Positions 1 to 60,316 of a DNA stretch of 64,000 nucleotides are shown one piece after another. The DNA comes from an uncultured Acidobacteriota bacterium (GTDB taxonomy: Bacteria > Acidobacteriota > Thermoanaerobaculia > Multivoradales > UBA5704): the NCBI GenBank assembly GCA_963770895.1, contig CAVYRF010000002.1, forward strand, positions 1,760,001 to 1,824,000. The letters are read 5' to 3'. Each line of letters opens with the position of its first letter. Positions within the stretch are counted from its first letter, which is position 1. A program made the position numbers and the translations under genes. The notes beneath the pieces were generated by a model. The model was not told where the DNA came from and ran no database searches. It saw only the letters and a list, made by a program, of their open reading frames with translations.

Positions 1-1460
1 CCTACGGCGAGCTGCGCCGGCGGGCGGGGGTCCTGGCGGACCGCTTGCGGGCTGCCGGGGTGGGGCCGGAGGTGCCGGTGGGTCTGCTGGCCGAGCGGTC
101 GGTGGGGATGGTGGTGGCGACGCTCGCGGTGCTGGAGGCGGGCGGCGCCTACGTGCCGCTCGACCCCGCGGCGCCGCCGGCGCGGCTGGCGCGGCTGCTG
201 GCCGAAGTGAGCCTGCCGGTGATCGTCGCCCAGCGGCACCTGGCCGCCGGCCTGCCCGCCGCCGCGGGGCTGGCAGGGATGGTGGTGGAGATCGACGGCG
301 GCGGCATCGCCAGCTCGCCGGCGGCTCCCCCGCGTCCACGTCCCGCCGCGCCGCCGGCTTGGTGCGAGCCGGACGGGCTGGCATACGTGATGTTCACGTC
401 GGGTTCGACGGGCACGCCCAAGGGCGTGGCGGTGACGCAGCGCGGCGTGGTGCGCCTGGTGCGGCGGACGTCGTACGCGCGGTTCGGTGCGGACCAGGTG
501 TTTTTGCAGCTGGCGCCGATCGGCTTCGACGCGGCGACGTTCGAGATCTGGGGAGCGCTGCTCAACGGCGGCCGTCTGGTGCTGGCGCCGCCGGGACCGG
601 TTTCGACGTCGGAGCTGGGGGAGCTGCTGGCGCGCCAGGGGGTGACGACGCTGTGGCTGACGGCGGGTCTGTTCCACGAGATGGTGGAGCAGAACCTGCC
701 AGGTCTGCGTCCTGTGCGTCAGCTGCTGGCGGGCGGCGACGCGCTGTCGCCGGCGCTGGTGTCACGGGCATTATCCGGCCTGCCGGGGACGCGGCTGATC
801 AACGGCTACGGTCCGACGGAAGGGACGACGTTCAGCTGCTGCGCCACGGTCACCGCCGAGTCGGTGGGAGCGACGGTGCCGATCGGGCGCCCGATCGCCG
901 GCACGGAGGTGGCGGTGGTGACGGGTGAGGACCAGCCGGCGGGGGTGGGTGTGCTGGGCGAGCTGGTGGTGGGCGGGCAGGGCCTGGCGCGGTGCTACTG
1001 GGGCCGTCCGGAGCTGACGGCGGAGCGATTCCGGCCGGACGCGGGCGGCCCTTCCGGCGGTCGGGTGTACCGGACGGGGGACCGGGTGCGTTGGCTTGCC
1101 GGCGGCAGCCTGGAGTTTGCCGGCCGTCTGGACCGGCAGGTGAAGATCCGCGGCTACCGCATCGAGCCGGGCGAGATCGAGGCGGCGCTGCGTTCGCACC
1201 CGCGGGTGACGCAGGCGGCGGTCGTGGTGCGCGCTGCCGGCGACGCTGCCGGCGCCGCTGCCGCTGCCGGTGACGGGGGCGTAGGCGGAGGCGACAAGCG
1301 GCTGGTGGCATACGTGGCGGGGGCGGAAGGGGACGACCTGCGCGGCTATCTGCAGGAGCGCCTGCCGGGCTACATGGTGCCGGCGGCGTGGGTCCGCCTG
1401 GCGTCGCTCCCCCTCACCGCCAACGGCAAGGTCGACCGCGCCGCCCTGCCCGAGCCCGCG
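1..1460 (+). repeat. Copy 1 of a near-identical ~1.4 kb Val A-domain duplication
   Basis: From base 1 (cctacggcgagctgcgccggcgg) the sequence matches 9979 onward almost base for base, with a few substitutions and two small in-frame indels. Confidence 0.93.
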
Positions 1461-4400
1461 GCCGCCGACCGAGGCGGGGAGCGCGAGCGGTTCCACGTCG
1501 CGCCGCGCACCCCGGTCGAAGAGCTGGTCGCCGGGATCTGGGCCGATCTGCTGGGCATCGAGCAGGTCGGCGCCGGCGACGACTTCTTCGCCCTGGGCGG
1601 CCACTCGCTGCTCGCCACCCGGCTGGTGTCGCGCCTGCGCGCGGCGCTCGCGGTAGAGCTGCCGCTGCGCGCGGTGTTCGCCAACCCGACGCTCGCGGGG
1701 CTGGCGGCGGCGGTCGAAGAAGCCCGCGTCCTGCCTGCCGGCGGCGTCGACTCGGCGCGCCGCGGCCCTGCCGGCGCCCCGCTCCTGCCGGCGCCGCGCG
1801 ACGGCGCGCCCCTGCCGCTTTCGTTCGCCCAGGAGCGGCTGTGGTTCCTCGACCAGATGGAGCCGGGCACGACGGCCTACAACATGCCCCTCCAGGTCGA
1901 GCTCACCGGCCGGCTGCTGCCGCCGGCCCTGGCGGCGGCGCTGGCCGAGGTGGTGCGCCGGCACGAGGCGCTGCGCACCACCTTCACGGCCGCCGGCGGC
2001 ACGCCGCGCCAGCACGTCGCGCCCGCCGCCGGCACCTTCCCGCTGCCGCTGCTGGACCTGGCCGGGCTGCCTGCCGCCCGCCGCGAGCGCGAGGCGGAGC
2101 GCCTGGGCCGCGAGCAGGCCGCCGTGCGCTTCGCGCTCGACCGCGGGCCGCTGTTCACGGCGCTGCTGGTGCGGCTGGGCGCGGAGCGCCACCGCTTCCT
2201 GGCGACGCTCCACCACGTCATCGCCGACGGCTGGTCGGTGAGCGTCCTGGTGCGCGAGCTGGCGGCGCTCTACGCGGCCGTCCGCGCCGGCCTGCCGTCG
2301 CCGCTGCCGGCGCCGCCCATCCAATACGCCGACTTCGCGCTCTGGCAGCGCGGCTGGCTGGCGGCGTTGGAAGCGACCGAGCTGGCCTATTGGGAGTCGC
2401 AGCTGGGCGGCGAGGTGGCGAGCGTCGAGCTGCCCGCCGACCGGCCGCGTCCGGCGATCCAGACCTACCGCGGCGGGCGCCGCCGGCTGGCGCTGACGCC
2501 CGAGCTGACCGCGCGCCTCAAGGGCTTCGGCCGCGCCGCGGGGACGACGCTCTTCATGACGCTCCTGGCCGCCGTCAAAGCGCTGCTGTGCCGCCACAGC
2601 GGCGAGCACGACGTGCCGGTGGGCGCGCCGGTCGCGGGCCGCCGCTGGCAGGAGACGGAGGCGCTGATCGGGTGCTTTCTCAACACACTGGTCCTGCGCA
2701 CCGATCTGGCGGGTCCGCCCACCTTCCGCGAGCTGGCGGCGCGGGTGCGCGCCGTGACGCTCGCGGCGTACTCCCACCAGGACGTGCCGTTCGAGGCGGT
2801 GCTCAACCGCCTGCGCCTGGCGCGCGACCTGTCGCGGGCGCCGCTGTTCCAGGTGCTGTTCAACATGCTGAACCTGCCGGCGTGGGACGCCTCCCTGCCG
2901 GGGCTCGACCTGCGCATCCTCGCCGTCGCCGACACGCCGTCCAAGTTCGACCTCACCTTCTACGTCGCCGAGGCCGATGCCGGCGTCGCGATCGACCTGG
3001 TCTACAACGCCGACCTCTTCGACGAAGCGCGCATGGCCGACGTCCTGGCGCAGCTGGCGCAGTTTCTCGCCCAGGCCGTCGAGCGGCCGGACGAGCCGAT
3101 CGACCGCCCGTCGCTCGCCACCGCCGCGGCGCTGGCGCTGCTGCCCGACCCCGCGGCGCCGCTGGACGCGGGCTGGATCGGCGCCGTGCACGAGCTGTTC
3201 GCGGCGCAGGCCGAGCGCGCGCCGGGACGCTTGGCAGTGGCCGACCCGGACGTCGAGTGGACCTACGGCGAGCTGCTCGCGGGGACGCGGCGCGTCGCCG
3301 GCTGGCTCGCCGGCCGGGGGGTGCGCGCCGGCGACCCGGTCGCCATCTTCGCCCATCGCAGCGCGCCCCTGGTGGAGGCCGTCGTCGGCGCCCTCACCGC
3401 CGGCGCCGCCTTCATGGTGCTCGATCCGGCGTACCCGCCGGCGCGTCAGGTCGAGATGCTGGACCTGGGCGCGCCGCGCGCCGCGCTGGCGCTCGCCGCC
3501 GCCGGGCCGCTGCCGCCCGAGGTGCAGTCGTGGCTGGGCGCGGCGGGCTGCGCCTGCCTGGAGCTCCCGGCGGGCGGCACCGCGGCGGTCCCGGCGCTGG
3601 CCGGGTTCGGCGGGTTCGGCGCCGCCGCCCCGCCGGCGCGGGTCGGCCCCCATGACGTGGCCTGCATCGGCTTCACCTCCGGCTCGACCGGCGGTCCCAA
3701 GGCCATCGCCGGGCTGCACGGCCCGCTGTCCCACTTCCTGCCGCGCCACTGCCAGGTCTTCGAGCTCGGCCCGGACGATCGCTTCTCGCTGCTGTCGGGC
3801 CTGGCGCACGACCCGCTGCAGCGCGACATCTTCACGCCGCTCTTCCTGGGCGCCGCCATCGTCGTCCCCGACCCCGCCGACAGCGGCATCGCCGGCCGCT
3901 GGGCGCGCTGGATGCGCCGCCGGGGCGTGACCGTGGCGCACCTCACGCCGGCGCTCGGCCAGCTGCTCGCCGAACGGCCGCCGGACGGCGAGCTGATCGA
4001 GGTGCCCAGCCTGCGCCGCGTCTTCCTGGTCGGCGAGGCCCTCACCTGCCGCGACGTGGCCCGCCTGCGCGCCATGGCCCCGGCGGTGACCTGCCTCAAC
4101 CTGTACGGCTCGACCGAGACCCAGCGCGCCGTCGGCTTCCACCGGGTGACGGCGCGGGAGGCGGAGTCGGATGCGGCGCGCGACAAACAGGTGTTGCCGC
4201 TCGGCCGCGGCATCGACGACGTGCAGCTGCTGATCGTCAACCCTGCCGGGCGGCTCGCCGGTATCGGCGAGGTCGGCGAGATCGCCGTGCGCAGCCCGCA
4301 CCTGGCCCGCGGCTACCTGCGCAACCCCGCGCTGTCGGCCGAGCGGTTCCAGGTCAACCCATTCACCGGCGCGCCCGGCGACCGCGTCTACCGCACCGGC

Positions 4401-7400
4401 GACCTGGGCCGCTACCGGCCCGACGGCGAAGTGCTGTTCGCCGGCCGCTCGGACTTCCAGGTCAAGCTGCGCGGCTTCCGCATCGAGCTGGGAGAGGTCG
4501 AGGCGGTCCTGCTGCGCCATCCCGCGGTGCGCGAAGCGGTGGTGGTGCTGCGCGGCGACCTGCCGGGGGGCAGCGGCCTGGCCGCCAACGTGGTCGTCCA
4601 CGGCGCCTCCCCTGAGAGCGCCGAGAGTGCGGACGACAGCACCCAGGCGCTGCGCGCCTGGCTGGCACACCGTCTGCCCGCCTACATGGTGCCGGCGGCC
4701 TTCGTGCGGCTGCCCGCCATCCCCCGCACCGCCAACGGCAAGGTGGACCGCCGCGCCCTGGAGCGCATCCCCTTGCCGCACGCCGACCAGGGCGCCGCCG
4801 CCCCCGCCGCCGGCCCGCGCACCCCCGCCGAGGAGCTGCTGGCGGGCATCTGGGCGCAGGTGCTCGGCCGCGAGCGGATCGCCGCCGCCGACAGCTTCTT
4901 CGACCTGGGCGGCCATTCGCTGCTCGCGACCCGCATGACGTCGCGGGTCCAGGAGGTGTTCGGCGTCGAGCTGCCGCTGCGGCGGCTGTTCGCCAACCCC
5001 ACCCTGGCGGCGCTGGCGGCGGACCTGGCGGCGAGCGCGCGGCCGGTGGCGCTGGCGGCGGCGCCGGGCGTGCCGCGGCTCACCCGCCGCCTGCAGCACG
5101 CCGGCCGCGGCGAGGGCCTGCCGCTGTCGTTCGCCCAGCAGCGGCTGTGGTTCCTCGACCGCCTGGAGCCCGGCCCGCTGTACAACATGAGCTCGGCGCT
5201 GCGCCTGACGGGCGCCCTGCACACGGCGGCGCTGGCCGCGGCCCTGCAGGCGATCGTCGCCCGCCACCAGGCGCTGCGCGCCACCTTCGACGGCGCGGAC
5301 GGCATGCCGCTCCAGCGCGTGGCGCCGCCGCACGCCGTGCCGCTGCCGGTCGTCGACCTGGCCGCCCTGCCGGCGGCGTGCCGCGACCGCGAGCTTGCCC
5401 GCGGCGGCGCCGCCGGCATCGCCCGCCCATTCGACCTGGCGCGCGGTCCGCTGCTGCGCGCCACGCTGTTCCGCCTGGGCGCGGGCGATCACGTGCTGGT
5501 GATCGTCGTGCACCACATCGCCGCCGACGGCGCGTCGATCGGCATCTTCGCGCGCGAGCTGTCGGCGCTGTATGCCGGGCTGGTCGGCGGCCAGCCGCCG
5601 TCGCTGCCGCCGCTGCCGGTGCAGTACGCCGACTACTCCGTGTGGCAGCGCGACTGGCTGCAAGGCGACCGGCTGGCGGCGCTGCTCGACGCCTGGCGCG
5701 ACCGCCTGGCCGGCGCTCCCGCCGGTCTCGAGCTGCCCACCGACCGGCCGCGGCCGGCGGTGCAGAGCTTCCGCGGCGCCAGCCTGCCGGTCGAGCTGGC
5801 GCCGCCGGCCGTGCGGGGCCTGCGCGCCCTGGCGCGCGGCCACGGCACGACGCTCTTCATGGCGCTGCTCGCCGCCTTCCAGGTGCTGCTGCACCGGCTG
5901 AGCGGGCAGGACGACCTGGTCGTCGGCTCGCCCATCGCCGGCCGCAACCAGGTGGCGATCGAGGGGCTGATCGGCCTCTTCGCCAACACCTTGGCCCTGC
6001 GCAGCCGCCTTGACGGGCGCCCGGCCTTCCGCCAGGTGCTGGCACAGGCGCGCGACACCGTGCTGGACGCCCATGCCCTGCAGGACCTGCCGTTCGAAAG
6101 GCTGGTCGAAGAGCTGCGGCCGGAGCGCGACCTGGGCCGCTCGCCGCTGTTCTCGGCGATGCTGGTGCTGCAGGACCCCGCCGCCGGCCTGCCGGAGCTG
6201 CCGGGCCTGGCGGTCACGCCGGTCGCCCTGGCCCCCGCCACGGCGCGCTTCGATCTGCTGCTCTCCCTGGCCGAAACCGGCGAGCGCCTGGCCGGCCGCG
6301 TCGAGATCGCCGCCGACCTGTTCGACCGCGCCACCGCCAAACGCTGGCTCGCGGCGCTGGCCGCGCTGGTCGAAGCGGCCGCCGCCGACCCCGGCTGCGC
6401 CGCGGGCGACCTGCCGCTGCTCTCAGCCGCCGAGCGCTTTGCGCTGTGCACGGAGTGGAACGACAGCGCGGCGTTGTCCGCCGGGTCCGCCGGGTCCGCC
6501 GCGCCCACCACCCTGCCGCAGCTCTTCGCGCAGCACGCCGCGCGCACGCCGCTGGCGCCGGCCTGCGCCGACGCCCATGTCCGCCTGACCTACGGCGAGC
6601 TCGACCGGCGCTCCGACCGCCTGGCGCACCGCCTGCGCGCGCTGGGAGTGGGGCCCGAGGCGATCGTCGCCATCGCCATGGAGCGATCGGCCGCGATGGT
6701 GACGGTGCTGCTGGGCGTGCTCAAGGCCGGCGCCGCCTACCTGCCGCTCGACCCCGCCTATCCCGCCGCGCGGCTGGCGTTCATGCTGCGCGACAGCGGC
6801 TGCGGCCTGGTGCTGGCGGACGCGACGGCCGCGGCGCTGCCGCCGCACGACGCCCGCGTGCTGGACCTGGCGCAGGCCTGGGACGCCGACGAAACCCTGG
6901 TGGCGGCGCGCCCGGCCGCGCTGCCGGCGCCGGCGCCGGCGCCGGACAGCCTGGCCTACCTGCTGTACACCTCCGGCTCGACCGGCATGCCGAAGGGTGT
7001 GCAGGTGCCACACCGCGCGCTTGCCAACTTTCTGCGCGCGATGCTGCGCGAGCCGGGCCTCGGCGCGCGCGACCGCCTGCTCGCGGTCACCTCGCTGTCG
7101 TTCGACATCGCCGGCCTGGAGCTCTTCCTGCCGCTCGCCGCCGGCGGCTGCGTCCACGTGGCCAGCGCCGCCGAAGCCGCCGACGGGCATCTTCTGGCCC
7201 AGCGCATCGCCGCCAGCGCCATCGACGTGCTGCAGGCGACCCCCGCGACCTGGCGCATGCTGCTGGCCGCCGGGTGGCGGGGCGGCGGTGGTTTCCGCGC
7301 CCTGTGTGGCGGCGAGGCGCTGCCACCCGACCTGGCGGCGGCGCTGCTGGCGCGGGCCGGCGAGCTGTGGAACCTCTACGGCCCCACCGAGACGACCATC

Positions 7401-10400
7401 TGGTCGGCGGTGTGCCGCGTCGGCGGCGACGGCGTGCACCTGGGTCGGCCGATCGCCGACACGGCGTTGCACGTGCTGGATCGCGACCGCCGGCCGGCGC
7501 CGTTCGGCGCGCCGGGCGAGCTGTGGATCGGCGGCGCCGGGCTGGCGCGCGGCTACCTGGGACGGCCCGAGCTGACGGCGGAGCGCTTCGCGCCCGACCC
7601 GTTCGCCGGCGCCGGCGCGCCGGGCGGGCGCCTGTACCGCACCGGCGACCTGGTGCGCCGCACCGCCGGCGGGCGCCTGGAGTTCCTGGGGCGCGTCGAT
7701 CACCAGGTCAAGCTGCGCGGCTTCCGCATCGAGCTGGGCGAGATCGAGGCGGTGCTGCTGAGCCACCCGGCGGTGGGTCAGGCGGTGGTGGTGCTGCGCG
7801 GCGATCAGGGAGGCCTCTCGGGCCGGCCGCGGTTGCCGAGCGGCGGCGGCGAGCCGTACCTGGCCGGCTACGTGGTGCCGGCGGTTCCCGCGTCGCCGCC
7901 GGGTCCCGCCGAGCTGCGCGCCTGGCTGGCGGAGCGCCTGCCCCGGCACCTGGTGCCGCAGGTGATGATGACGCTGGACGCCCTGCCGCTCACCCCCAAC
8001 GCCAAGGTCGACCGCCTGGCGCTGCCGGCTCCCCGGCGCGCCGCCGCGGGCCAGCCGGAGCCGCCGCGGGGGCCGCTCGAAGAGCTGCTGGCCGACGTCT
8101 GGGGCGAGCTTCTGGGGCTCGACCAGGTGGCGCGGGACGACGATTTCTTCGCCCTGGGCGGGCACTCGCTCCTGGCGGTGCGGGTGGTGGCGCGCCTGCG
8201 CCAGGGCCTGGGCGTCGAGCTGCCGGTGCGCGCCGTGTTCGAGGCTCCGGCGTTGCAGGCCCTGGCGCGGCGGGTCGAGGGCGCGCTGGGCGGCGTCGAC
8301 GTGGCGGCGGCGCCGCCGCTGGCGCCGCGGCCCTGCCTGGACGCGCCGCCGCCGCCGCTCTCCTTCGCGCAGGAGCGGCTGTGGTTCCTCGACCGGCTCG
8401 ATCCGGCGAGCGCCAGCTACAACGTGTCGGCGGCCGTGCGCCTGACCGGCGCGCTCGACCCGGCGGTGCTGCGCCGCTGCCTGGACCAGGTGGTGCGGCG
8501 GCACGAGGCGCTGCGCACCACCTTCGACCTGTGCGGCGAAGCGCCCTGCCAGGTGGTGCATCCGGCCGCGCCGGTGGCGTTTGCCCGGGTCGACCTGCCG
8601 GCGACGCCCCGTGCTGCCAACGCCGCCGACGCCGCCGCCGCTGCCGACGCCGCCGACGCCGCCGGCGAAGCGGAGGTCGCGCGCCTGCTCGCCGCGGCGG
8701 CCCGCCGGCCGTTCGACCTGCGGCGCGGGTCGCAAGATCCGGCGACTGCCGGCGGGCTACCGCGGCCTGCCGGCCTGCTGCGCGCGCTGGTGCTGCGCCG
8801 CACGGAGCGGGACTGGGTGCTGCTCCTGACGCTCCACCACATCGTCGCCGACGGCTGGTCGATGGGCGTTCTGGTCGGCGAGCTGGCGGCCCTCTACCGC
8901 GCCTATGCCGCGGGCGAGCCTTCGCCGCTCGCCGAGCTGCCGGTGCAGTACGCCGACTTCGCGGTGTGGCAGCGGACCGCCATGGCCGGCGAGCGCCTGG
9001 CCGCCGAGCTCGCCTTCTGGCGGCAGCAGCTGGCGGGAGCGCCGGTCCTGCTGCCGCTCCCGGCCGACCGGCCGCGGCCGGCGGTGCGCAGCCAGCGCGG
9101 CCGGCGGGTGGCGCTGCGCCTGGCGCCGGCGCAGCTTGCCGGAGTGCAGGCGATGGGCCGCCGCCATGGCGCGACGCTCTTCATGTCGCTGCTCGCGGCC
9201 TGGCAGCTGCTCCTGGGCCGCACCGGCGGCGCCGCCGACTTGCTGCTCGGCTCGCCGGTCGCCAACCGCCAGCGGCGCGAAACCGAAGGCATGATCGGCT
9301 TCTTCGCCAACACCCTGGTGCTGCGCGCCCGGTTGGCGGACGGCCCCTTCGCCGACCTCCTGGAGCAGACGCGCGCCACCGCGCTCGCGGCCTTCGCGCA
9401 CCAGGACCTGCCGTTCGAAAAGCTGGTGGCCGAGCTGGCCCCCGAGCGCAGCCTGACCGCCAACCCGCTGGTGCAGGCCGTCATCGCGATGCAGGACGTC
9501 CCGCTGCCTGACTGCGACCTGGGCGGCCTGCGCCTGGAGCCGCTGCCGCTGCCGGGAAACACCGCCAAGTTCGACCTCACCCTGATGCTGGCTCCCCTGG
9601 CTCCCCTGGCTCCCCTGGCGCCCCTGGCGCCCGACGGCGCCGGGCTCGCCGGCGCCCTGGAATACGCCTGCGACCTCTTCGACCACACCACCGCGGCGCG
9701 GCTGGCCGCCAGCTTCGTCACGCTGCTCACCGCGCTGGCCGGCGGTGCGGTGGCGCAAACCCCCATCGCCGAGCTGCCGCTGTTGTCGGCGGCCGAGCTG
9801 CAGCAGCTGCGGGAGTGGCGCGGCGAAGCCGTGCTTCCGGCGGCGCCGGAGGCGGGGCGCGAGACGATCGCGTCGCTGTTCGCGGCGCAGGCGGCGCGCA
9901 CGCCGGATGCGGTGGCGGTGACCGCGGCGGGCGGGGGCGATGTCGGCGATGTTGGCGATGTCCGCAGCGAGGCGGTGACCTACGGCGAGCTGCGCCGGCG
10001 GGCGGGGGCCCTGGCGGATCGGCTGCGGGCTGCCGGGGTGGGGCCGGAGGTGCCGGTGGGTCTGCTGGCCCAACGGTCGGTGGGGATGGTGGTGGCGACG
10101 CTCGCGGTGCTGGAGGCGGGCGGCGCCTACGTGCCGCTCGACCCCGCGGCGCCGCCGGCGCGGCTGGCGCGGCTGCTGGCCGAAGTGAGCCTGCCGGTGA
10201 TCGTCGCCCAGCGGCACCTGGCAGCCGGCCTGCCCGCCGCCGCGGGGATGGTGGTGGAGATCGACGCCGGCGGCCTGGCGGTTTCGCCGGCGGCTCCCCC
10301 GCGTCCACGCCCCGCCGCGCCGCCGGCTTGGTGCGAGCCGGACGGGCTGGCATACGTGATGTTCACGTCGGGTTCGACGGGTACGCCCAAGGGCGTGGCG

Positions 10401-13079
10401 GTGACGCACCGCGGTGTGGTGCGCCTGGTGCGGCGGACGTCGTACGCGCGGTTCGGTGCGGACCAGGTGTTTTTGCAGCTGGCGCCGATCGGCTTCGACG
10501 CGGCGACGTTCGAGATCTGGGGAGCGCTGCTCAACGGCGGCCGTCTGGTGCTGGCGCCGCCGGGACCGGTTTCGACGTCGGAGCTGGGGGAGCTGCTGGC
10601 GCGCCAGGGGGTGACGACGCTGTGGCTGACGGCGGGTCTGTTCCACGAGATGGTGGAGCAGAACCTGCCAGGTCTGCGTCCTGTGCGTCAGCTGCTGGCG
10701 GGCGGCGACGCGCTGTCGCCGGCGCTGGTGTCACGGGCATTATCCGGCCTGCCGGGGACGCGGCTGATCAACGGCTACGGTCCGACGGAAGGGACGACGT
10801 TCAGCTGCTGCGCCACGGTCACCGCCGAGTCGGTGGGAGCGACGGTGCCGATCGGGCGCCCGATCGCCGGCACGGAGGTGGCGGTGGTGACGGGTGAGGA
10901 CCAGCCGGCGGGGGTGGGTGTGCTGGGCGAGCTGGTGGTGGGCGGGCAGGGCCTGGCGCGGTGCTACTGGGGCCGTCCGGAGCTGACAGCGGAGCGATTC
11001 CGGCCGGACGCGGGCGGCCCTTCCGGCGGCCGGGTGTACCGGACGGGGGACCGGGTGCGTTGGCTTGCCGGCGGCAGCCTGGAGTTTGCCGGCCGTCTGG
11101 ACCGGCAGGTGAAGATCCGCGGCTATCGCATCGAGCCGGGCGAGATCGAGGCGGCGCTGCGTTCGCACCCGCGGGTGACGCAGGCGGCGGTCGTGGTGCG
11201 CGCTGCCGGCGACGGAGGCGACAAGCGGCTGGTGGCGTACGTGGCGGGGGCGGAGGGGGACGACCTGCGCGGTTACCTTCAGGAGCGCCTGCCGGCCTAC
11301 ATGGTGCCGGCGGCGTGGGTCCGCCTGGCGTCGCTCCCCCTCACCGCCAACGGCAAGGTGGACCGCGCCGCCCTGCCCGAGCCGGCGGCCGGCGTAAGAA
11401 CGGCCGCCGCCGCTCTTGAACCGCTGCGCGCCAGCGAAGAGATCGTCGCGGCGATCTGGTGCGAGCTGCTCGGAGTGTCGCGCGTCGGCCGCCGCGACGA
11501 CTTCTTCGACCTGGGAGGCCACTCGCTGCTCGCCACGCGGCTGGTGTCGCGCCTGCGCAGCCACTTCTCGGTCGAGCTGCCGCTGCGCGCCGCGTTCGAG
11601 GCTCCCACCCTGGCCGGGATGGCGGCGGCGGTCGAGGCGCTGCGCACCCAGCGCGCGGCCGGCGGCGCGATGGAGCGGCTGCCCCGCCCCGAGCGGCTGC
11701 CGCTGTCCCACGCCCAGGAGCGGGTGTGGTTCCTGTACCGCGTCGATCCGCTGAGCACCGCGTTCAACATCGGCGGCGCCGTGGAGCTGACCGGCGCCCT
11801 GGACGTCGGCGCGCTGCGCGCCGGCGTGGACACCGTCGTCGGGCGCCACGAGATGCTGCGCACCAGCTTCCACGAGCTGGACGGCGAGCCGGTGCAGGTG
11901 GTCGCGCCGGCGGCGCCGCAGCCCCTGCCGCTGGTCGACCTGAGCGCCCTTGCCGAGCCGCGGCGCGAGCTGGAGCGGCTGGCCGCCGCCGAGCGGCGCC
12001 GCCCGTTCGACCTGTCCGGCGGGCGCCTGCTGCGCGTGCACCTGCTGCGCCTGGCGGCGCGGCACCACGTGGCGCTGCTCTTCCTGCACCACATCGCCGG
12101 CGACGGCTGGTCGATGGCCATCCTGGAGCGCGAGCTGGGCGACCTCTACGAGCTCTTCGCCTGCCGCGCCACCGTCGCCACCAACGCGCCGCCGCCGGCC
12201 GCGCCGGCCGCGCTCATCCTGCAGTACGCCGACTACGCGGTGTGGCAGCGCCGCTGGCTGGCCGGCGAAGAGCAGGACCGCCAGCTGGCCTACTGGCGGC
12301 GCCAGCTCGCCGGGCCGCTGCCGGTGCTGCAGCTGCCGATGCGCCGGCAGCGCCCCGAGACCCCCAACCTGGTCGGCGCCAGCGAGCGCCTGCGCGTGCC
12401 GCGCCGCGAAGCCGCGGCGCTCAACGAGCTCAGCCGCCGCGAGGGCGTGACCCTGTTCATGACCCTGCTGGCGGCGTTCAAGACGCTGCTCTACAGCTAC
12501 ACCGGCCAGGACGACATCGTGGTCGGCACCAACGTCGCCAACCGCAACCGCACCGAGGTCGAGGGGCTCATCGGCTGCTTCATCAACAACCTGGCGCTGC
12601 GCACCGACCTGTCCGGCAACCCCACCTTCCGCGAGCTGCTGCGCCGCGTCCGCGACGTGGCGCTGGACGCCTACGCCCACCAGGACGTGGCGTTCGAAAA
12701 GGTGATCGCCGACCTGCAGCCGCGGCGGCAGGGCGGCTACTCGCCGGTCTTCCACGTGATGATGGTCTTTGAGAACTACCCCACGGCGCCGCGCCGGGTG
12801 GCGGAGCTGGAGATGGCGTCGCTGCCGCTGCCCACCGACGCCGCCAACTTCGAGCTCATGCTGGCGCTGGGCGAAGACCGCGACGGCTTGAGCGGCCGCC
12901 TCACCTACGACAGCGACCTGTTCGACGCCGCCACCATGACGCGGCTGGCGGCGGACTACGCGGCGCTGCTGGCGCAGGTCGCGGCCTCTCCCGACCTGGC
13001 GCTGGCCGGCTTCGCCCTGGCCCCCGACGCCGGCGACCGCGGCCTTGCCAACAGCTTCAACGAGGTGCTGGAGGCATGA
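3..13079 (+). CDS. NRPS, 5'-truncated: A(Val)-T-C-A(Aad, Lys2-like)-T-C-A(Gly)-T-C-A(Val)-T-C
   Basis: Frame is open from the window edge (TAC at 3; ORF track starts at 45). Four (Y/F)TSGSTGxPK motifs, four GGHSL PCP motifs, and C-domain cores HHVIADG, HHIAADG, HHIVADG, HHIAGDG. Hand-read codes: DAFWLGGTFK twice (Val type), DPRHFVLRAK (Lys2/Aad type), DILQLGLIWK (Gly). Ends with a C domain. Confidence 0.96.
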   Translation, partial: YGELRRRAGVLADRLRAAGVGPEVPVGLLAERSVGMVVATLAVLEAGGAYVPLDPAAPPARLARLLAEVSLPVIVAQRHLAAGLPAAAGLAGMVVEIDGGGIASSPAAPPRPRPAAPPAWCEPDGLAYVMFTSGSTGTPKGVAVTQRGVVRLVRRTSYARFGADQVFLQLAPIGFDAATFEIWGALLNGGRLVLAPPGPVSTSELGELLARQGVTTLWLTAGLFHEMVEQNLPGLRPVRQLLAGGDALSPALVSRALSGLPGTRLINGYGPTEGTTFSCCATVTAESVGATVPIGRPIAGTEVAVVTGEDQPAGVGVLGELVVGGQGLARCYWGRPELTAERFRPDAGGPSGGRVYRTGDRVRWLAGGSLEFAGRLDRQVKIRGYRIEPGEIEAALRSHPRVTQAAVVVRAAGDAAGAAAAAGDGGVGGGDKRLVAYVAGAEGDDLRGYLQERLPGYMVPAAWVRLASLPLTANGKVDRAALPEPAAADRGGERERFHVAPRTPVEELVAGIWADLLGIEQVGAGDDFFALGGHSLLATRLVSRLRAALAVELPLRAVFANPTLAGLAAAVEEARVLPAGGVDSARRGPAGAPLLPAPRDGAPLPLSFAQERLWFLDQMEPGTTAYNMPLQVELTGRLLPPALAAALAEVVRRHEALRTTFTAAGGTPRQHVAPAAGTFPLPLLDLAGLPAARREREAERLGREQAAVRFALDRGPLFTALLVRLGAERHRFLATLHHVIADGWSVSVLVRELAALYAAVRAGLPSPLPAPPIQYADFALWQRGWLAALEATELAYWESQLGGEVASVELPADRPRPAIQTYRGGRRRLALTPELTARLKGFGRAAGTTLFMTLLAAVKALLCRHSGEHDVPVGAPVAGRRWQETEALIGCFLNTLVLRTDLAGPPTFRELAARVRAVTLAAYSHQDVPFEAVLNRLRLARDLSRAPLFQVLFNMLNLPAWDASLPGLDLRILAVADTPSKFDLTFYVAEADAGVAIDLVYNADLFDEARMADVLAQLAQFLAQAVERPDEPIDRPSLATAAALALLPDPAAPLDAGWIGAVHELFAAQAERAPGRLAVADPDVEWTYGELLAGTRRVAGWLAGRGVRAGDPVAIFAHRSAPLVEAVVGALTAGAAFMVLDPAYPPARQVEMLDLGAPRAALALAAAGPLPPEVQSWLGAAGCACLELPAGGTAAVPALAGFGGFGAAAPPARVGPHDVACIGFTSGSTGGPKAIAGLHGPLSHFLPRHCQVFELGPDDRFSLLSGLAHDPLQRDIFTPLFLGAAIVVPDPADSGIAGRWARWMRRRGVTVAHLTPALGQLLAERPPDGELIEVPSLRRVFLVGEALTCRDVARLRAMAPAVTCLNLYGSTETQRAVGFHRVTAREAESDAARDKQVLPLGRGIDDVQLLIVNPAGRLAGIGEVGEIAVRSPHLARGYLRNPALSAERFQVNPFTGAPGDRVYRTGDLGRYRPDGEVLFAGRSDFQVKLRGFRIELGEVEAVLLRHPAVREAVVVLRGDLPGGSGLAANVVVHGASPESAESADDSTQALRAWLAHRLPAYMVPAAFVRLPAIPRTANGKVDRRALERIPLPHADQGAAAPAAGPRTPAEELLAGIWAQVLGRERIAAADSFFDLGGHSLLATRMTSRVQEVFGVELPLRRLFANPTLAALAADLAASARPVALAAAPGVPRLTRRLQHAGRGEGLPLSFAQQRLWFLDRLEPGPLYNMSSALRLTGALHTAALAAALQAIVARHQALRATFDGADGMPLQRVAPPHAVPLPVVDLAALPAACRDRELARGGAAGIARPFDLARGPLLRATLFRLGAGDHVLVIVVHHIAADGASIGIFARELSALYAGLVGGQPPSLPPLPVQYADYSVWQRDWLQGDRLAALLDAWRDRLAGAPAGLELPTDRPRPAVQSFRGASLPVELAPPAVRGLRALARGHGTTLFMALLAAFQVLLHRLSGQDDLVVGSPIAGRNQVAIEGLIGLFANTLALRSRLDGRPAFRQVLAQARDTVLDAHALQDLPFERLVEELRPERDLGRSPLFSAMLVLQDPAAGLPELPGLAVTPVALAPATARFDLLLSLAETGERLAGRVEIAADLFDRATAKRWLAALAALVEAAAADPGCAAGDLPLLSAAERFALCTEWNDSAALSAGSAGSAAPTTLPQLFAQHAARTPLAPACADAHVRLTYGELDRRSDRLAHRLRALGVGPEAIVAIAMERSAAMVTVLLGVLKAGAAYLPLDPAYPAARLAFMLRDSGCGLVLADATAAALPPHDARVLDLAQAWDADETLVAARPAALPAPAPAPDSLAYLLYTSGSTGMPKGVQVPHRALANFLRAMLREPGLGARDRLLAVTSLSFDIAGLELFLPLAAGGCVHVASAAEAADGHLLAQRIAASAIDVLQATPATWRMLLAAGWRGGGGFRALCGGEALPPDLAAALLARAGELWNLYGPTETTIWSAVCRVGGDGVHLGRPIADTALHVLDRDRRPAPFGAPGELWIGGAGLARGYLGRPELTAERFAPDPFAGAGAPGGRLYRTGDLVRRTAGGRLEFLGRVDHQVKLRGFRIELGEIEAVLLSHPAVGQAVVVLRGDQGGLSGRPRLPSGGGEPYLAGYVVPAVPASPPGPAELRAWLAERLPRHLVPQVMMTLDALPLTPNAKVDRLALPAPRRAAAGQPEPPRGPLEELLADVWGELLGLDQVARDDDFFALGGHSLLAVRVVARLRQGLGVELPVRAVFEAPALQALARRVEGALGGVDVAAAPPLAPRPCLDAPPPPLSFAQERLWFLDRLDPASASYNVSAAVRLTGALDPAVLRRCLDQVVRRHEALRTTFDLCGEAPCQVVHPAAPVAFARVDLPATPRAANAADAAAAADAADAAGEAEVARLLAAAARRPFDLRRGSQDPATAGGLPRPAGLLRALVLRRTERDWVLLLTLHHIVADGWSMGVLVGELAALYRAYAAGEPSPLAELPVQYADFAVWQRTAMAGERLAAELAFWRQQLAGAPVLLPLPADRPRPAVRSQRGRRVALRLAPAQLAGVQAMGRRHGATLFMSLLAAWQLLLGRTGGAADLLLGSPVANRQRRETEGMIGFFANTLVLRARLADGPFADLLEQTRATALAAFAHQDLPFEKLVAELAPERSLTANPLVQAVIAMQDVPLPDCDLGGLRLEPLPLPGNTAKFDLTLMLAPLAPLAPLAPLAPDGAGLAGALEYACDLFDHTTAARLAASFVTLLTALAGGAVAQTPIAELPLLSAAELQQLREWRGEAVLPAAPEAGRETIASLFAAQAARTPDAVAVTAAGGGDVGDVGDVRSEAVTYGELRRRAGALADRLRAAGVGPEVPVGLLAQRSVGMVVATLAVLEAGGAYVPLDPAAPPARLARLLAEVSLPVIVAQRHLAAGLPAAAGMVVEIDAGGLAVSPAAPPRPRPAAPPAWCEPDGLAYVMFTSGSTGTPKGVAVTHRGVVRLVRRTSYARFGADQVFLQLAPIGFDAATFEIWGALLNGGRLVLAPPGPVSTSELGELLARQGVTTLWLTAGLFHEMVEQNLPGLRPVRQLLAGGDALSPALVSRALSGLPGTRLINGYGPTEGTTFSCCATVTAESVGATVPIGRPIAGTEVAVVTGEDQPAGVGVLGELVVGGQGLARCYWGRPELTAERFRPDAGGPSGGRVYRTGDRVRWLAGGSLEFAGRLDRQVKIRGYRIEPGEIEAALRSHPRVTQAAVVVRAAGDGGDKRLVAYVAGAEGDDLRGYLQERLPAYMVPAAWVRLASLPLTANGKVDRAALPEPAAGVRTAAAALEPLRASEEIVAAIWCELLGVSRVGRRDDFFDLGGHSLLATRLVSRLRSHFSVELPLRAAFEAPTLAGMAAAVEALRTQRAAGGAMERLPRPERLPLSHAQERVWFLYRVDPLSTAFNIGGAVELTGALDVGALRAGVDTVVGRHEMLRTSFHELDGEPVQVVAPAAPQPLPLVDLSALAEPRRELERLAAAERRRPFDLSGGRLLRVHLLRLAARHHVALLFLHHIAGDGWSMAILERELGDLYELFACRATVATNAPPPAAPAALILQYADYAVWQRRWLAGEEQDRQLAYWRRQLAGPLPVLQLPMRRQRPETPNLVGASERLRVPRREAAALNELSRREGVTLFMTLLAAFKTLLYSYTGQDDIVVGTNVANRNRTEVEGLIGCFINNLALRTDLSGNPTFRELLRRVRDVALDAYAHQDVAFEKVIADLQPRRQGGYSPVFHVMMVFENYPTAPRRVAELEMASLPLPTDAANFELMLALGEDRDGLSGRLTYDSDLFDAATMTRLAADYAALLAQVAASPDLALAGFALAPDAGDRGLANSFNEVLEA
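9588..9632 (+). repeat. 9-bp tandem repeat (ctggc[t/g]ccc)x5 encoding (LAP)5 inside a C domain
   Basis: ctggctccc x3 followed by ctggcgccc x2, read directly from the sequence. Confidence 0.9.
9979..11385 (+). repeat. Copy 2 of the near-identical Val A-domain duplication
   Basis: Matches 1-1460, including locally rare codons such as ttatcc and tggctt. Similarity stops after KVDRAALPEPAA. Confidence 0.93.
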
Positions 13080-14014
13080 CGGCCGCCGCCGCCCCCTTCG
13101 CGGAGGTGCTGGGCCTGCTGCGCGGCGGCGGCGGCCGCATGGAGCTGTTCCGCTACTCGGCCGGGGATCTGCACGAGCTGTACGGCGACGCCTGGGCCGC
13201 CGACGCGCTCTTCGTCCTGCGCAAGGTCGAGGCGTTCGCGCGCCTGTGCGGCGAGGACCTGGCGGCGGCGCTCGCCAGCTACGGCGAATGGATCGAGCGC
13301 GCCCTGGCGGAACGCGCCAGCCAACCCGCGCCGGGATCGCCGCAGGACGATCCGCGCTTCGGCATCCACTACCTGTACGCCCTGACGCTCAGCACGGCGC
13401 TCAACCGCTCCCGCTACGAGCTGCTCTGCGACTACCGCCAGGCCGTCGTGCGGCACCTGCCGGCGGGAACGCGCAGCCTGGAGATCGGCGCCGGCAACTG
13501 CATGGCCGCGGCGCTCGCCGGCGAACGCGGGCGGGTGAGCGCCTACGAGATGAACGAGCTGAGCCGCCTGTGGCCGGGCGTGCTCGAGCTTGGCGGCAGC
13601 GTCGACCTGCGCATCGAACCCTATCGCTTCGACGAGCCGGGCGCGTTTGGCTTCGTCACCATGATCGAGCTGCTGGAGCACGTCGCCGATCCCGCCGCCT
13701 ACCTGGCGGGGGCCGGCCGCGTGCTGGCGGATGGCGGCCTTGCCTATCTCACCTTCGCCGTCCGCATGCCGCAGTTCGATCACCTGGTCGATTTCGCCAC
13801 AGTGGAGGAGTGCCGTCAGCTGGTCGCGGACCACGGTTTCACGGTGCGCGACGAGCGGTGCCTGATCGACACCTATCAACCCTTCGCGGAGGCCGACCGC
13901 TGGCGTCTGGCGGCAGACCCGCGGCACGCCGTCATCTATTGCTGCCTGGCGCAAAAGGACCCGCGGCCCGAGCCGTCCCTGGCGCTGCGTGCATTCAATC
14001 TGGAGATCGACTGA
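13076..14014 (+). CDS. Class I SAM-dependent methyltransferase
   Basis: Motif I-like SLEIGAGNC, acidic post-strand VSAYEMNE, and IELLEHVADP...RVLADGGLAYL typical of class I methyltransferases. ATGA overlap with the upstream NRPS stop. Confidence 0.8.
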   Translation: MTAAAAPFAEVLGLLRGGGGRMELFRYSAGDLHELYGDAWAADALFVLRKVEAFARLCGEDLAAALASYGEWIERALAERASQPAPGSPQDDPRFGIHYLYALTLSTALNRSRYELLCDYRQAVVRHLPAGTRSLEIGAGNCMAAALAGERGRVSAYEMNELSRLWPGVLELGGSVDLRIEPYRFDEPGAFGFVTMIELLEHVADPAAYLAGAGRVLADGGLAYLTFAVRMPQFDHLVDFATVEECRQLVADHGFTVRDERCLIDTYQPFAEADRWRLAADPRHAVIYCCLAQKDPRPEPSLALRAFNLEID

Positions 14015-14016
14015 CC

Positions 14017-15945
14017 ATGGCGCACGAACCGATTCATCAGACCGTCCGGCGTGCCGCGGAGCGTTTCGGCGACCACCTTGCCGTGGACGCGGCGGATCAC
14101 CAGCTGACCTACCGCCAGCTCGCCCAGCGGGCCGGCGACCTGGCCGCGGCGCTCACCGCCAGCGGCGCGGGGCCCGGGTCGCTGGTGGCGATCCTGGCCG
14201 GCCGGGTGGGCGACGTCATCGCCGGCATGCTGGCCGCGCTCGAAGCGGGCTGTGTCTTCGTGCCGCTGGACGCCGGCTTTCCCGTCGCCACCCTGCCCGC
14301 GGTGACCGCCGCGGCGCAGCCGGGCTGGTGGCTGGTCGGCCGCGAGCACGTCGACGCCGTGGCCGATCTGCGCGCCGCGCACGGCTTGACCGCCACGGTG
14401 CTGCCGCTCGACGAGGTGGGCGGCGGCGTGGCTCTGACAGTGCCGTCCGCACCGGCCGCGGCCCCCGCCGCCTGGGACCCCGACGGGCTCTGCTACGTCT
14501 ACTTCACCTCCGGCTCGACCGGGCAACCGAAGGGGATCGGCGGCCGCCTCAAGGCGATCGATCACTTCATCCGCTGGGAGGCCGAGACCCTGGGCGCCGG
14601 GCCCGGCATCCGCGTCAGCCAGCTGACCTCGCCGGCCTTCGACGCCTTTTTGCGCGACGCCTTCCTGCCGCTGTCGGTGGGCGGCACGGTGTGCGTGCCC
14701 GGCGGCCGCGACGTGCTGCTGGACGGCCGCCGCCTGGCGGAGTGGATCGATCGGCAGGGCGTCAACGTCCTGCACTGCACGCCGTCGCTGTTCCGCTCGC
14801 TGTTCGCCGCCGACCTGGACGCCGGGCGCTTCGCCGCCCTGCGCCACGTGCTGCTGGCCGGCGAACCGCTGCTGCCCGCCGACGTGCGCCGCTGGTGCGC
14901 CGTGTTCGGCGAGCGCATCCGGCTGATCAACCTCTACGGGCCGAGCGAAACCACGATGGTCAAGTTCTTCTACCCGGTGCGTCCGGAAGACGGCGCTGCG
15001 CCGTTCGTGCCGATCGGCCAGCCGATGCCCGGCGCGCGCGCCGTGGTGGTCGACGAAAACGGCCAGGTCTGCCAGCCCGGCAAGGTGGGCGAGATCTATA
15101 TCCGCACCCCCTACCGCACCCTGGGCTACGTCAACAATCCGCAGCTCACCGCCGAGGTGTTCATCCAGAACCCCTGGAGCGACCGGCCCGACGACATCGT
15201 CTACAAGACCGGCGACCTGGGGCGGGTGCGCGAGGACGGCAACTTCGAGTTCCTGGGCCGCCGCGATCACCAGGTGAAGGTGCGCGGCGTGCGCATCGAG
15301 CTCGCGCCGATCGAAGACCTGCTGCGCTCCCACGCGCAGGTCGCCGACGCGGTGGTGGCGGCGTGCGACGACCCGCAGGGCAGCAAGTTCCTGTGCGCCT
15401 ACGTGGTGCTCAAGGAAAAGGTGGCGCCCGCCAGCCTGGCCGAGTTCCTGCGCCCGCGCCTGCCCGAGGCCATGGTGCCGACGGCGTTCGTCGAGCTGGA
15501 AACGCTGCCGCGCACCTTGAGCGGCAAGGTCAACCGCCGCGCCCTGCCCGAGCCCGGAGCGCTGCTCGGCCGCGACTACGTGGCGCCGCGGACGCCGGTG
15601 GAGCACGACCTGTGCGACATCTTCTCGCAGCTGCTCGCGGTGCCGCGCGTCGGCATCCACGACAGCTTCTTCGACCTGGGCGGCCACTCGCTGTCGGCCA
15701 CCCTGCTGCTGTCGCGCATCCGCTCGCGGCTGGGCGTCGAGGTGCCGCTGCGCCAGGTCTTCCGCACCCCGACCGTGGAGCAGATCGCCCTGGCGGTGAC
15801 GCGCCTGCAGCTCGAACAGGAGGACGCCGGCGAGATGGCCCGCCTGCTCAGCGAGGTCGCCAGCCTGTCGGGCGACGCCCTGGCGAGCGCCGTGCGCCAG
15901 GAGGCCGAGGCGGAAGAGGTCGTCGTGCGCGAGGGACAACCGTGA
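14017..15945 (+). CDS. Stand-alone NRPS A-T didomain (acidic amino acid, Asp/MeAsp type)
   Basis: Start taken as ATG 14017 (MAHEPIHQ), 2 nt after the methyltransferase stop. Motifs YFTSGSTGQPKG, FDAFLRD, NLYGPSETTMVK, YKTGD, GGHSL. Hand-read code DARHLALMVK. Confidence 0.92.
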   Translation: MAHEPIHQTVRRAAERFGDHLAVDAADHQLTYRQLAQRAGDLAAALTASGAGPGSLVAILAGRVGDVIAGMLAALEAGCVFVPLDAGFPVATLPAVTAAAQPGWWLVGREHVDAVADLRAAHGLTATVLPLDEVGGGVALTVPSAPAAAPAAWDPDGLCYVYFTSGSTGQPKGIGGRLKAIDHFIRWEAETLGAGPGIRVSQLTSPAFDAFLRDAFLPLSVGGTVCVPGGRDVLLDGRRLAEWIDRQGVNVLHCTPSLFRSLFAADLDAGRFAALRHVLLAGEPLLPADVRRWCAVFGERIRLINLYGPSETTMVKFFYPVRPEDGAAPFVPIGQPMPGARAVVVDENGQVCQPGKVGEIYIRTPYRTLGYVNNPQLTAEVFIQNPWSDRPDDIVYKTGDLGRVREDGNFEFLGRRDHQVKVRGVRIELAPIEDLLRSHAQVADAVVAACDDPQGSKFLCAYVVLKEKVAPASLAEFLRPRLPEAMVPTAFVELETLPRTLSGKVNRRALPEPGALLGRDYVAPRTPVEHDLCDIFSQLLAVPRVGIHDSFFDLGGHSLSATLLLSRIRSRLGVEVPLRQVFRTPTVEQIALAVTRLQLEQEDAGEMARLLSEVASLSGDALASAVRQEAEAEEVVVREGQP

Positions 15946-20591: not shown

Positions 20592-30499
<9,908 letters not shown>

Positions 30500-30518
30500 G
30501 CGGGGGAGACGCGGCGCA

Positions 30519-42628
<12,110 letters not shown>

Positions 42629-42632
<4 letters not shown>

Positions 42633-46915: not shown

Positions 46916-48621
46916 CCTTGTTCAAGTTTCTGCTCCGCACCTCGCGCGGCCTCGCCTCGCTGGCGATCCTGGCGGGGCTGGTCGCGGGCGTTTGCAATTC
47001 CGCCCTGATCGCCTGCATCAATCGCACGGTGTCGCGGCCGGGCGCCACCACCGCGACCTGGATCTGGGTCTTCGTCGGCATCTGCCTGCTGCTGCCGCTC
47101 ACCCGCTTCGCTTCCTCGGCGCTGCTGGTCAAGCTGTCGCAGAAGGGAATTCACGACCTGCGCATGCACCTGGGCCAGAACATCCTGGCGGCGCCGCTGC
47201 GCAAGTTGGAGGAGATGGGGCCGGCGCGCCTGCTGAGCGTGCTGACCGACGACGTGCGCACCATCTCGGTCGCGCTCATCGCCATCCCCGGCACCTGTAT
47301 CCAGATCGCCATCGTGCTCGGCTGCCTGGGGTACCTGTGCTGGCTCTCACGGCCGGCGTTCGTCGGCCTGCTGGTGTTGATGGTGCTGGCGCTGGCCAGC
47401 ATCCAGCTGCCGGCGATGCGCGCCCGGCGGCTGCACAGCCTGGCGCGCGAGGTCCAGGACGTGCTGTTCCGCCACCTGCGCGCCATCACCGACGGCAACA
47501 AGGAGCTGAAGATCCACCGCGGCCGCCGGCAGGCCTTCGTCAGCGACTCGCTCGGCGCGGCCTCCGCCCGTTCCCAGCGCTACAGCGTGATCGGCAACAT
47601 GTTGGACGCGGCGACCGGCAGCTGGAGCCAGCTGGTGTTCTTCGGCGCGGTCGGCGCCCTGCTCTTCGTGCTGCCGCGGCTGGTGCCGATGTCGACCGAG
47701 GTGCGGATGGGCTACATCCTGACGATGATGTACATGATGGTGCCGCTCGACGTGATCTTCGGCGCCCTGCTGCCCACGGTGGTGCGGGCCGACATCGCGC
47801 TCAAGAAGATCGAATCGCTCGGCCTCTCGCTCGAGCAGATGGTGAGCGAAAAGCCGGCGCCCGCCGCGCCGCCCCCTTCGTGGCACAGCCTGGAGCTGGC
47901 CGGCGTCACCCATTCGTTCCTGTCGGAACGGGAGCGGGAGTCGTTCGTCGTCGGCCCGATCGACCTGACCCTGCGCCCCGGCGAAGTGGTCTTCATCATC
48001 GGCGGCAACGGCAGCGGCAAGACCACCCTGGCGAAGCTGCTCACCGCGCTCTATGCCCCCGAATCCGGCACGGTGCGCCTGGACGGCGTGGCGATCACCG
48101 ACGACAACCGCGACGCCTATCGCCAGCACTTCTCGGCGGTGTTCTCCGACTTCTTCCTGTTCGACAGCATCCTGGGCCTGGAGGCGCCGGAGCTGGACGC
48201 GCGGGCCCGCGAATACCTGGTCAAGCTGCAGCTCGACGGCAAGGTCGAGATCCGCAGCGGGGCGCTGTCGACGATCGACCTGTCGCAGGGCCAGCGCAAG
48301 CGGCTGGCGCTGCTCACCGCCTACCTGGAAGATCGCGACATCTACCTGTTCGACGAGTGGGCGGCGGACCAGGACCCGCTGTTCAAGCGCACCTTCTACT
48401 TCCAGCTCATCCCCGAGCTCAAGGCGCGCGGCAAGACGGTGCTGGTGATCAGCCACGACGACCAGTACTACCACCTGGGCGACCGCGTCATCAAACTGGT
48501 CAACGGCCAGATCGAGTACGACACCACGCCCGAAAAGCTCGGCCCGCCGCGGCCGCTGTCCGCCGCGACGCCGGGTGAGCCGCTGCTGCAGCACGCGGCG
48601 CAGGCGGCCGCGGCCCCATGA
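46912..48621 (+). CDS. Cyclic peptide export ABC transporter (SyrD/PvdE/YojI family)
   Basis: Hydrophobic N-terminal half, Walker A GGNGSGKTT, and family signature LSQGQRKRLAL...LFDEWAADQDP. Confidence 0.93.
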   Translation: MTLFKFLLRTSRGLASLAILAGLVAGVCNSALIACINRTVSRPGATTATWIWVFVGICLLLPLTRFASSALLVKLSQKGIHDLRMHLGQNILAAPLRKLEEMGPARLLSVLTDDVRTISVALIAIPGTCIQIAIVLGCLGYLCWLSRPAFVGLLVLMVLALASIQLPAMRARRLHSLAREVQDVLFRHLRAITDGNKELKIHRGRRQAFVSDSLGAASARSQRYSVIGNMLDAATGSWSQLVFFGAVGALLFVLPRLVPMSTEVRMGYILTMMYMMVPLDVIFGALLPTVVRADIALKKIESLGLSLEQMVSEKPAPAAPPPSWHSLELAGVTHSFLSERERESFVVGPIDLTLRPGEVVFIIGGNGSGKTTLAKLLTALYAPESGTVRLDGVAITDDNRDAYRQHFSAVFSDFFLFDSILGLEAPELDARAREYLVKLQLDGKVEIRSGALSTIDLSQGQRKRLALLTAYLEDRDIYLFDEWAADQDPLFKRTFYFQLIPELKARGKTVLVISHDDQYYHLGDRVIKLVNGQIEYDTTPEKLGPPRPLSAATPGEPLLQHAAQAAAAP

Positions 48622-58037: not shown

Positions 58038-58079
58038 CCGGCAGTGGAGCGTGCGAACGAAAGGTGAAAGGTGGTTCCG

Positions 58080-59126: not shown

Positions 59127-59160
59127 TCGACCGCGGCGGCGAAACCAGGTAAGGCAGCCC

Positions 59161-60285: not shown

Positions 60286-60316
60286 GGCGGCGGGGAGCCG
60301 CCGAGCGGCCAACCTG

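Follow-up and report, generated by a model that had tools for sequence, protein, structure and literature searches.

The fungal enzyme Lys2, which reduces the delta-carboxyl of 2-aminoadipate (Aad), is organised as ADA-A-T-R, with a truncated half-condensation region (ADA) in front of its adenylation (A) and carrier (T) domains and a C-terminal thioester reductase (R). In McyE, the A domain (code DPRHSGVVGK) belongs to an elongation module that follows a KS-AT-ACP-aminotransferase unit and inserts D-Glu via the gamma-carboxyl. We analysed a stretch of 64,000 nucleotides (the window; positions 1,760,001 to 1,824,000 of contig CAVYRF010000002.1) from an uncultured Acidobacteriota bacterium, in which the fourth module of a nonribosomal peptide synthetase (NRPS) gene, g1, contains an A domain with the code DPRHFVLRAK, hereafter the target. 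This code differs from that of the first A domain of ACV synthetase (ACVS-A1), EPRNIVEFVK. The membership of the target in the Lys2-type clade of A domains is well supported; the domain is native to bacteria and has yet to be characterised.

ACVS module 1 resembles the target module in part: it activates Aad, which is linked through its delta-carboxyl, and has a half condensation (C) domain (C*) in front according to PMC7884236, but it is an initiation module whereas the target belongs to an elongation module. The only product-anchored bacterial DPRH-type domain that we found in the literature was Zmn16-A1, from the zeamine system of Serratia plymuthica. A table in PMC3547906 gives its code as DPRHLALLAK with an NRPSpredictor call of Aad, and PMC5811116 reports, from tandem mass spectrometry (MS/MS) and nuclear magnetic resonance (NMR), that the N-terminal Asp of prezeamine is linked via its side chain. 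Zmn16-A1 and the target are both bacterial NRPS A domains with D-P-R-H at positions 235, 236, 239 and 278 and have seven of the ten code positions in common; Zmn16-A1, however, is part of a loading module for Asp, with L, A and L at positions 299, 301 and 330 instead of the F, V and R of the target. A 2025 survey gives DPRHLALLAK as aminoadipate-specific, apparently restating the prediction and not the residue found in the product. A literature search for Lys2-like bacterial A domains found no bacterial case, and a full-text search for the codes DPRHFVMRAK and DPRHSGVVGK and for code stems returned nothing relevant, the short stems matching ADPRHL genes only.

A bacterial A-domain family in one clade with Lys2

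Genuine Lys2 sequences were collected by scanning metagenome contigs with a degenerate pattern of the Lys2 motif as given in an earlier, sequence-only reading of this DNA, which yielded 22 loci with long open frames and a GC content of 36-67%. The 12 loci tested all scored 1414-1963 bits on TIGR03443, the NCBIfam model of the Lys2 equivalog L-aminoadipate-semialdehyde dehydrogenase (cut-off 1030.1), though each was cut at ~1150 residues. The motif, ending in [LF]GA, was read in 22 of 22 loci (the pattern forced its core, not its flanks), and two further strings of that reading, ending in [AS]V and in [LI]L, were each present in 21. The 10-residue codes, derived from motif anchors and a MAFFT alignment, were DPRHFVMRAK in 11 of the 12 verified Lys2 sequences and DPRHFVMRSK in the other one. 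The earlier reading had thus given the Lys2 strings and code correctly, and it was also right that the target code (D235, P236, R239, H278, R330 and K517 included) departs from the Lys2 code at a single position, nine of ten being the same. The four motifs that it quoted from the target are all present in the g1 protein, once each (Table 1). Of the limits it gave for the domain, the end at 4775 stands, while the start at 3185 is one nucleotide early, the codon frame beginning at 3186.

Among the NCBIfam models, TIGR03443 was the best for the target A domain (441.6 bits, E 5e-132), the generic A-domain model reaching 366.1 bits. It was listed for none of the nine other A domains of the window, even at E<=1e-60, and its strongest match in the genome was the target. 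These scores lie below the equivalog cut-off, with 577.2 bits when the C-lobe and the T domain are included, and the total of 1255 bits for the open frame is a sum over several modules and so not a pass; the control genomes of this search were all prokaryotes, with no Lys2 among them. By BLASTP, the target was 36-41.5% identical to Lys2 A domains (350-389 bits, 17 full-length alignments). Over the 34 positions of the NRPSpredictor pocket shell, the target equalled the 12 Lys2 sequences at 22-24, compared with 6-15 for 40 other A domains. The likeness of the target to Lys2 is far beyond chance.

This likeness was recovered in phylogenetic trees, for which all support values given here are SH-aLRT values (Shimodaira-Hasegawa-like approximate likelihood ratio test) of quick searches only. 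In a 96-row tree (LG+C20 with posterior mean site frequencies, PMSF), 12 Lys2 sequences and 44 bacterial A domains with codes beginning with DPR were split from 40 other A domains with a support of 99, and two 44-row trees, obtained under two models, gave the same split of Lys2 and DPR domains with a support of 100. The phylogeny that the sequence-only reading had suggested as a check therefore places the target with Lys2 and away from the 40 other NRPS A domains (99-100), in trees made without ACVS-A1, McyE and McyB-A2. Lys2 was monophyletic (100 in the 96-row tree), on its own long stem of ~0.9-1.0 changes per site. A position of Lys2 nested inside the bacterial family, taken from the 96-row tree, was withdrawn, the tree that keeps the bacterial rows together having a log-likelihood higher by 44.7 than the free quick tree; an approximately unbiased (AU) test did not reject holding 28 bacterial rows together (p 0.95), so that Lys2 may be either nested in the bacterial family or sister to it.

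On the bacterial side, the 120 relatives listed by a search among longer proteins were all multi-module NRPSs of bacteria, including Thermoanaerobaculia, Pyrinomonadaceae, Longimicrobium, Herpetosiphonaceae and Scytonema, and the best A domain in each was 44-76% identical to the target. Their 231 A-domain segments comprised 121 with a code beginning with DPR, of which 108 had Arg330 and 13 did not; a second DPR subtype has Gln330 (DPRHFGFQAK, 13 of 121). The family codes read DPRH[FL]V[LFY]R[AS]K, and position 322 is variable in the family (L, F, Y, S or A). At least 599 pattern matches and at least 567 confirmed loci were found in species-representative genomes; the best 80 loci were all from uncultured metagenome-assembled genomes (MAGs), mostly of Acidobacteriota, with no characterised producer among them. 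In the genome of the target itself (8.16 Mb, 70.8% GC, 95% complete, with 237 A3 motifs and 277 C-family domains), the DPR type accounts for four of the 237 A domains. The PDB contained no solved family member, its best profile match (61.8 bits) being generic, and a search of the ESM Atlas returned generic A-domain clusters only. We also observed that, in 18 of 42 cases among the listed relatives, a DPR module is followed by an A domain of Gly-type code (DILQLGV[VI]WK); a Gly-type code also follows the target in the window.

The picture drawn by the sequence-only reading was that of a bacterial NRPS with a fungal domain inserted in it. Only the likeness of the motifs would speak for a recent transfer from a fungal LYS2 gene, an explanation to which we give practically no credence. 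The target is 70-76% identical to bacterial relatives and only 36-41.5% to Lys2, the family counts hundreds of bacterial members, and Lys2 sits on its own long stem. In addition, the GC content of the target domain (0.767) and that of its third codon positions (GC3, 0.958) are as in the flanking parts of the gene. The match in GC3, together with the all-bacterial listed relatives and the number of loci, indicates that the target is not a fungal insert, and the identities and GC3 refute such a transfer. The target is therefore at home in bacteria, as one of a large and so far uncharacterised family of A domains that forms one clade with the fungal Lys2 A domain.

The ADA region and the origin of Lys2

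A hidden Markov model (HMM) of the ADA region, made from the ~240-260 residues before the A domain in 11 Lys2 sequences, matches condensation domains over their C-lobe (~residues 190-445). When the 277 C-family domains of the genome were ranked against this model, the C domain upstream of the target came first, with 70.7 bits. For the DPR A domains of this genome, the C domains immediately before them ranked 1, 2, 9 and 70, and those downstream of DPR modules 132, 133 and 150. In the 120 listed relatives, the score had a median of 83.1 bits for C domains preceding DPR A domains (n=109) and of 45.0 bits for those preceding other A domains (n=79; Mann-Whitney p=2e-25). These relatives being mutually related, this p-value overstates their independence and the comparison within proteins is fairer: the C domain upstream of the DPR A domain outscored the others in 67 of 68 proteins. 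A 70-row tree of C-lobes split 28 lobes labelled "other" from the 11 ADA and 30 DPR-upstream lobes with a support of 99, at a point where long branches meet. One more row labelled "other" grouped with ADA, the A domain of that row being a DPR variant not caught by the regular expression.

The closest counterpart of the N-terminal ADA region of Lys2 is thus the C-lobe of condensation domains located directly before DPR A domains, which is a new finding. Since the C domain before the target carries the most ADA-like C-lobe, the C-lobe and the A domain appear to have been inherited together. The suggestion of the sequence-only reading that this module bears on a bacterial NRPS origin of Lys2 gains support on two sides, from clade membership and from the ADA region being best matched by the C-lobe upstream of DPR domains.

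These results can be compared with previous proposals. In PMC7884236, Lys2 and ACVS module 1 are proposed to descend from an elongation module, and our result on the ADA region and the C-lobes fits this origin. In PMC2823734, no bacterial sisters of the aminoadipate reductases (AARs, the Lys2 homologues) appeared other than A-acyltransferase proteins, and the origin of Lys2 was left open with a wish for more bacterial sampling; the sampling of the DPR family answers this call for more bacterial sequences. A broader scenario, which we put forward tentatively and with clearly more doubt than belief, would be that the R330-type DPR modules are widespread bacterial elongation modules inserting delta-linked Aad, and that Lys2 descends from such a C-A-T module or shares an immediate ancestor with it. 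The N-lobe of the C domain would then have been lost, leaving ADA, and a reductase added, the co-inherited unit of C-lobe and A domain being the trace of this history.

Predicted substrate and carboxyl activated

The target has the make-up of a canonical C-A-T elongation module, with a C domain bearing HHxxxDG, an A domain with the motifs A3, A5, A7, A8 and A10, and a T domain with GGHS. In contrast to the truncated half-condensation ADA of Lys2, the C domain in front of the target is full and catalytic, with HHVIADG. Whereas Lys2 ends with a thioester reductase and reduces its acyl group, no reductase was found in g1, in which Pfam detected only Condensation, AMP-binding, AMP-binding_C and PP-binding domains; the T domain of the target is followed by a C domain, so that in this in-line module the acyl group would pass to the next residue. 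The domain map places no epimerisation domain between the target module and the downstream C domain. Both flanking C domains carry LSFAQ[EQ]RLWF and HHxxxDG, by which we take them to be ordinary-looking C domains.

The explanation that we favour, with some but not strong confidence, is that the target is a native bacterial A domain of the Lys2 clade that binds its substrate backwards and loads it through the distal carboxyl, the substrate being most likely Aad. As in Lys2, Arg239 and Arg330 would hold an alpha-amino dicarboxylic acid by its alpha-carboxylate, deep in the pocket, leaving the distal carboxyl to be adenylated and transferred to the carrier domain. Acylation of the alpha-amino group would fall to the upstream C domain, and the downstream one would hand the distal acyl on to the following residue, for which the code DILQLGLIWK is presumably of the Gly type. 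The residue would thereby be joined by an isopeptide bond and keep its alpha-carboxylate free. The activation of the distal carboxyl of an acidic amino acid by the target is the likely part of this proposal: Pro236 and Arg239 are present as in Zmn16-A1, whose side-chain-linked Asp supports such an activation. Aad is the first candidate because the target code matches Lys2 at nine of ten positions including Arg330 (Phe299, Val301 and Arg330 being common to the target and Lys2 and not to Zmn16-A1), but that the substrate is Aad specifically is, in our estimation, a little less than an even call.

Several observations weigh against this explanation. The Aad call for Zmn16-A1 was wrong on chain length, which makes it unsafe to deduce Aad from a DPRH code. 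The literature search found neither an assay nor a product structure for the target or for any other bacterial domain of the R330 type. Like ordinary alpha-carboxyl activators, the target retains Asp235, so that the orientation of the substrate is unreadable from the code alone, and none of the trees includes Zmn16-A1 or the three described A domains named above. Moreover, no Aad-supply gene exceeded its cut-off in the 95%-complete genome, where LysW had 0 matches and the best scores were 118.3 for LAT (cut-off 520.8), 239 for 2-aminoadipate transaminase (cut-off 650) and 176.8 for homocitrate synthase (cut-off 413.55). No such gene was visible in the cluster either, and none would be required if the substrate were universal, like Glu. 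An aminotransferase beside another DPR cluster, considered as a lysine aminotransferase, was rejected, being an EctB-type diaminobutyrate transaminase.

The lack of detected Aad-supply genes, and the Zmn16-A1 precedent of an Aad prediction ending in side-chain-linked Asp (PMC3547906 and PMC5811116), would both suit a shorter and universal acid. In that case the target would belong to the same clade and bind backwards, but it would activate Glu via the gamma-carboxyl or Asp via the beta-carboxyl (D- or L-), and the Aad call would be an artefact of having Lys2 as the only reference. The very wide spread of the family fits a common metabolite, and the variation at position 322 suggests more than one substrate. 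The target nevertheless resembles Lys2 more than Zmn16-A1 in its code (nine versus seven positions of ten, with Phe299, Val301 and Arg330 making the difference) and equals Lys2 over most of the pocket shell, so that we judge a shorter acid unlikely, though well worth keeping in view.

We find it improbable that Aad or Glu is activated ordinarily, at its alpha-carboxyl, with Arg239 and Arg330 binding the side-chain carboxylate and a normal peptide bond as the result. The retention of both Asp235 and Lys517 and the ordinary look of the flanking C domains, judged from their motifs, would agree with it, but the same pocket acts on the distal carboxyl in Lys2, as known from textbook biochemistry, and Pro236 is also found in the distal-carboxyl activators ACVS-A1 and McyE. 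The product-anchored DPRH domain Zmn16-A1, in addition, links its residue through the side chain (PMC5811116).

The surrounding cluster and the meaning of the family

The window has a GC content of 70-77% and is almost entirely taken up by one cluster, a very large lipopeptide line of NRPS and polyketide synthase (PKS) genes in a high-GC bacterium with mostly acidobacterial relatives (Table 1). The whole g1 gene begins ~8.4 kb upstream of the window and encodes six C-A-T modules and a terminal C domain, the target A domain being that of module 4 in the domain map. Further downstream than the genes of Table 1 are four more NRPS genes, a terminal thioesterase, and genes for an ABC transporter and for TauD, LLM and AsnB-like proteins.

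Table 1. Features of the g1 region, in window coordinates
Feature	Position (nt)	Strand	Basis or remark
g1, NRPS gene, 3' part	3..13079	+	5'-open ORF in window; ORF list, Pfam, domain map
Condensation domain upstream of target A	1797..3134	+	full length, HHVIADG
Lys2-type (DPR) adenylation domain (target), code DPRHFVLRAK	3186..4775	+	motifs, profile, BLASTP, trees
A3 motif of target A domain	3672..3701	+	
A4 region, code positions 235, 236, 239 (D, P, R)	3783..3854	+	
Stretch with code position 278 (H)	3933..3968	+	
A5 motif, code positions 322, 330, 331 (L, R, A)	4098..4133	+	
A10 motif PRTANGKVDRRAL with Lys517	4722..4760	+	
Carrier (T) domain, GGHSL at nt 4896-4934	4836..5021	+	PF00550, residues 1612-1673
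Downstream condensation domain, HHIAADG	5109..6434	+	
Next A domain, code DILQLGLIWK	6471..8090	+	
Methyltransferase gene	13076-14011		downstream of g1
A domain of stand-alone A-T protein g2, code DARHLALMVK	14008..15627	+	

The methyltransferase gene and the g2 gene that follows it occupy 13076-15945. The A domain of g2 has seven of ten code positions in common with Zmn16-A1 and may be a second side-chain-carboxyl activator, loading Asp or methylated Asp. In the 96-row tree it was sister to the whole clade of DPR domains and Lys2 (100, but on a long branch), and its comparison with the McyB fragment 8hlk revealed no particular relationship. Three more DARH-type domains were observed in the same genome.

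Like McyE, the cluster also has a KS-AT-ACP-aminotransferase unit, although the code positions 299-331 of the target differ from those of McyE. This unit, extended by a luciferase-like monooxygenase (LLM), stands in-line within one NRPS gene, while a FAAL-ACP-KS-AT-KR-ACP starter is encoded separately (30500-42632, 48618-55562); together they presumably follow the beta-amino-acid lipopeptide logic of iturin, puwainaphycin and microcystin. After the synthetases (58071-62245) are found a TauD-family dioxygenase, a MupA-type LLM (TIGR04020, 455.7 bits) and an AsnB-type amidotransferase (TIGR01536, 466.9 bits). One may speculate that the latter could amidate the free carboxylate left by an isopeptide-linked residue.

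Other observations concern the synthetases themselves. Tandem C-C didomains occur in g3 and g5 (16095-18668, 27236-28546, 36630-39275), and HHxxxDG is missing from two C-family domains, the second C of g3 and the third C of g4. The A domains of g1 modules 3 and 6 (3-1600 and 9870-11490), both with the code DAFWLGGTFK, are near-identical, their end branches in the 96-row tree measuring 0.014 and 0.006, which points to a recent gene conversion or duplication within the gene. About 10 kb upstream of the window (L113:7579-9924), just before the NRPS gene, a caspase-family peptidase (PF00656) adjoins a protein with MAP3K TRAF-binding and TPR-S domains. The open frames of the genome reach 12745 aa, and only 11 E-like C-C pairs were seen; the NRPS load of this genome is extreme, and canonical epimerisation domains are few.

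Standard predictors will label hundreds of such A domains of soil Acidobacteriota as "Aad" from Lys2 alone. The structures predicted for these very large and so far unexplored clusters will all change once it is known whether Aad, Glu or Asp is loaded and which of its carboxyls is used. If the scenario outlined above for the R330-type DPR modules is true, these would be the first Aad-using NRPS units outside ACV synthetase. For the proposed origin of Lys2 from an elongation module, the link between the ADA region and the C-lobes upstream of DPR domains offers a concrete candidate on the bacterial side.

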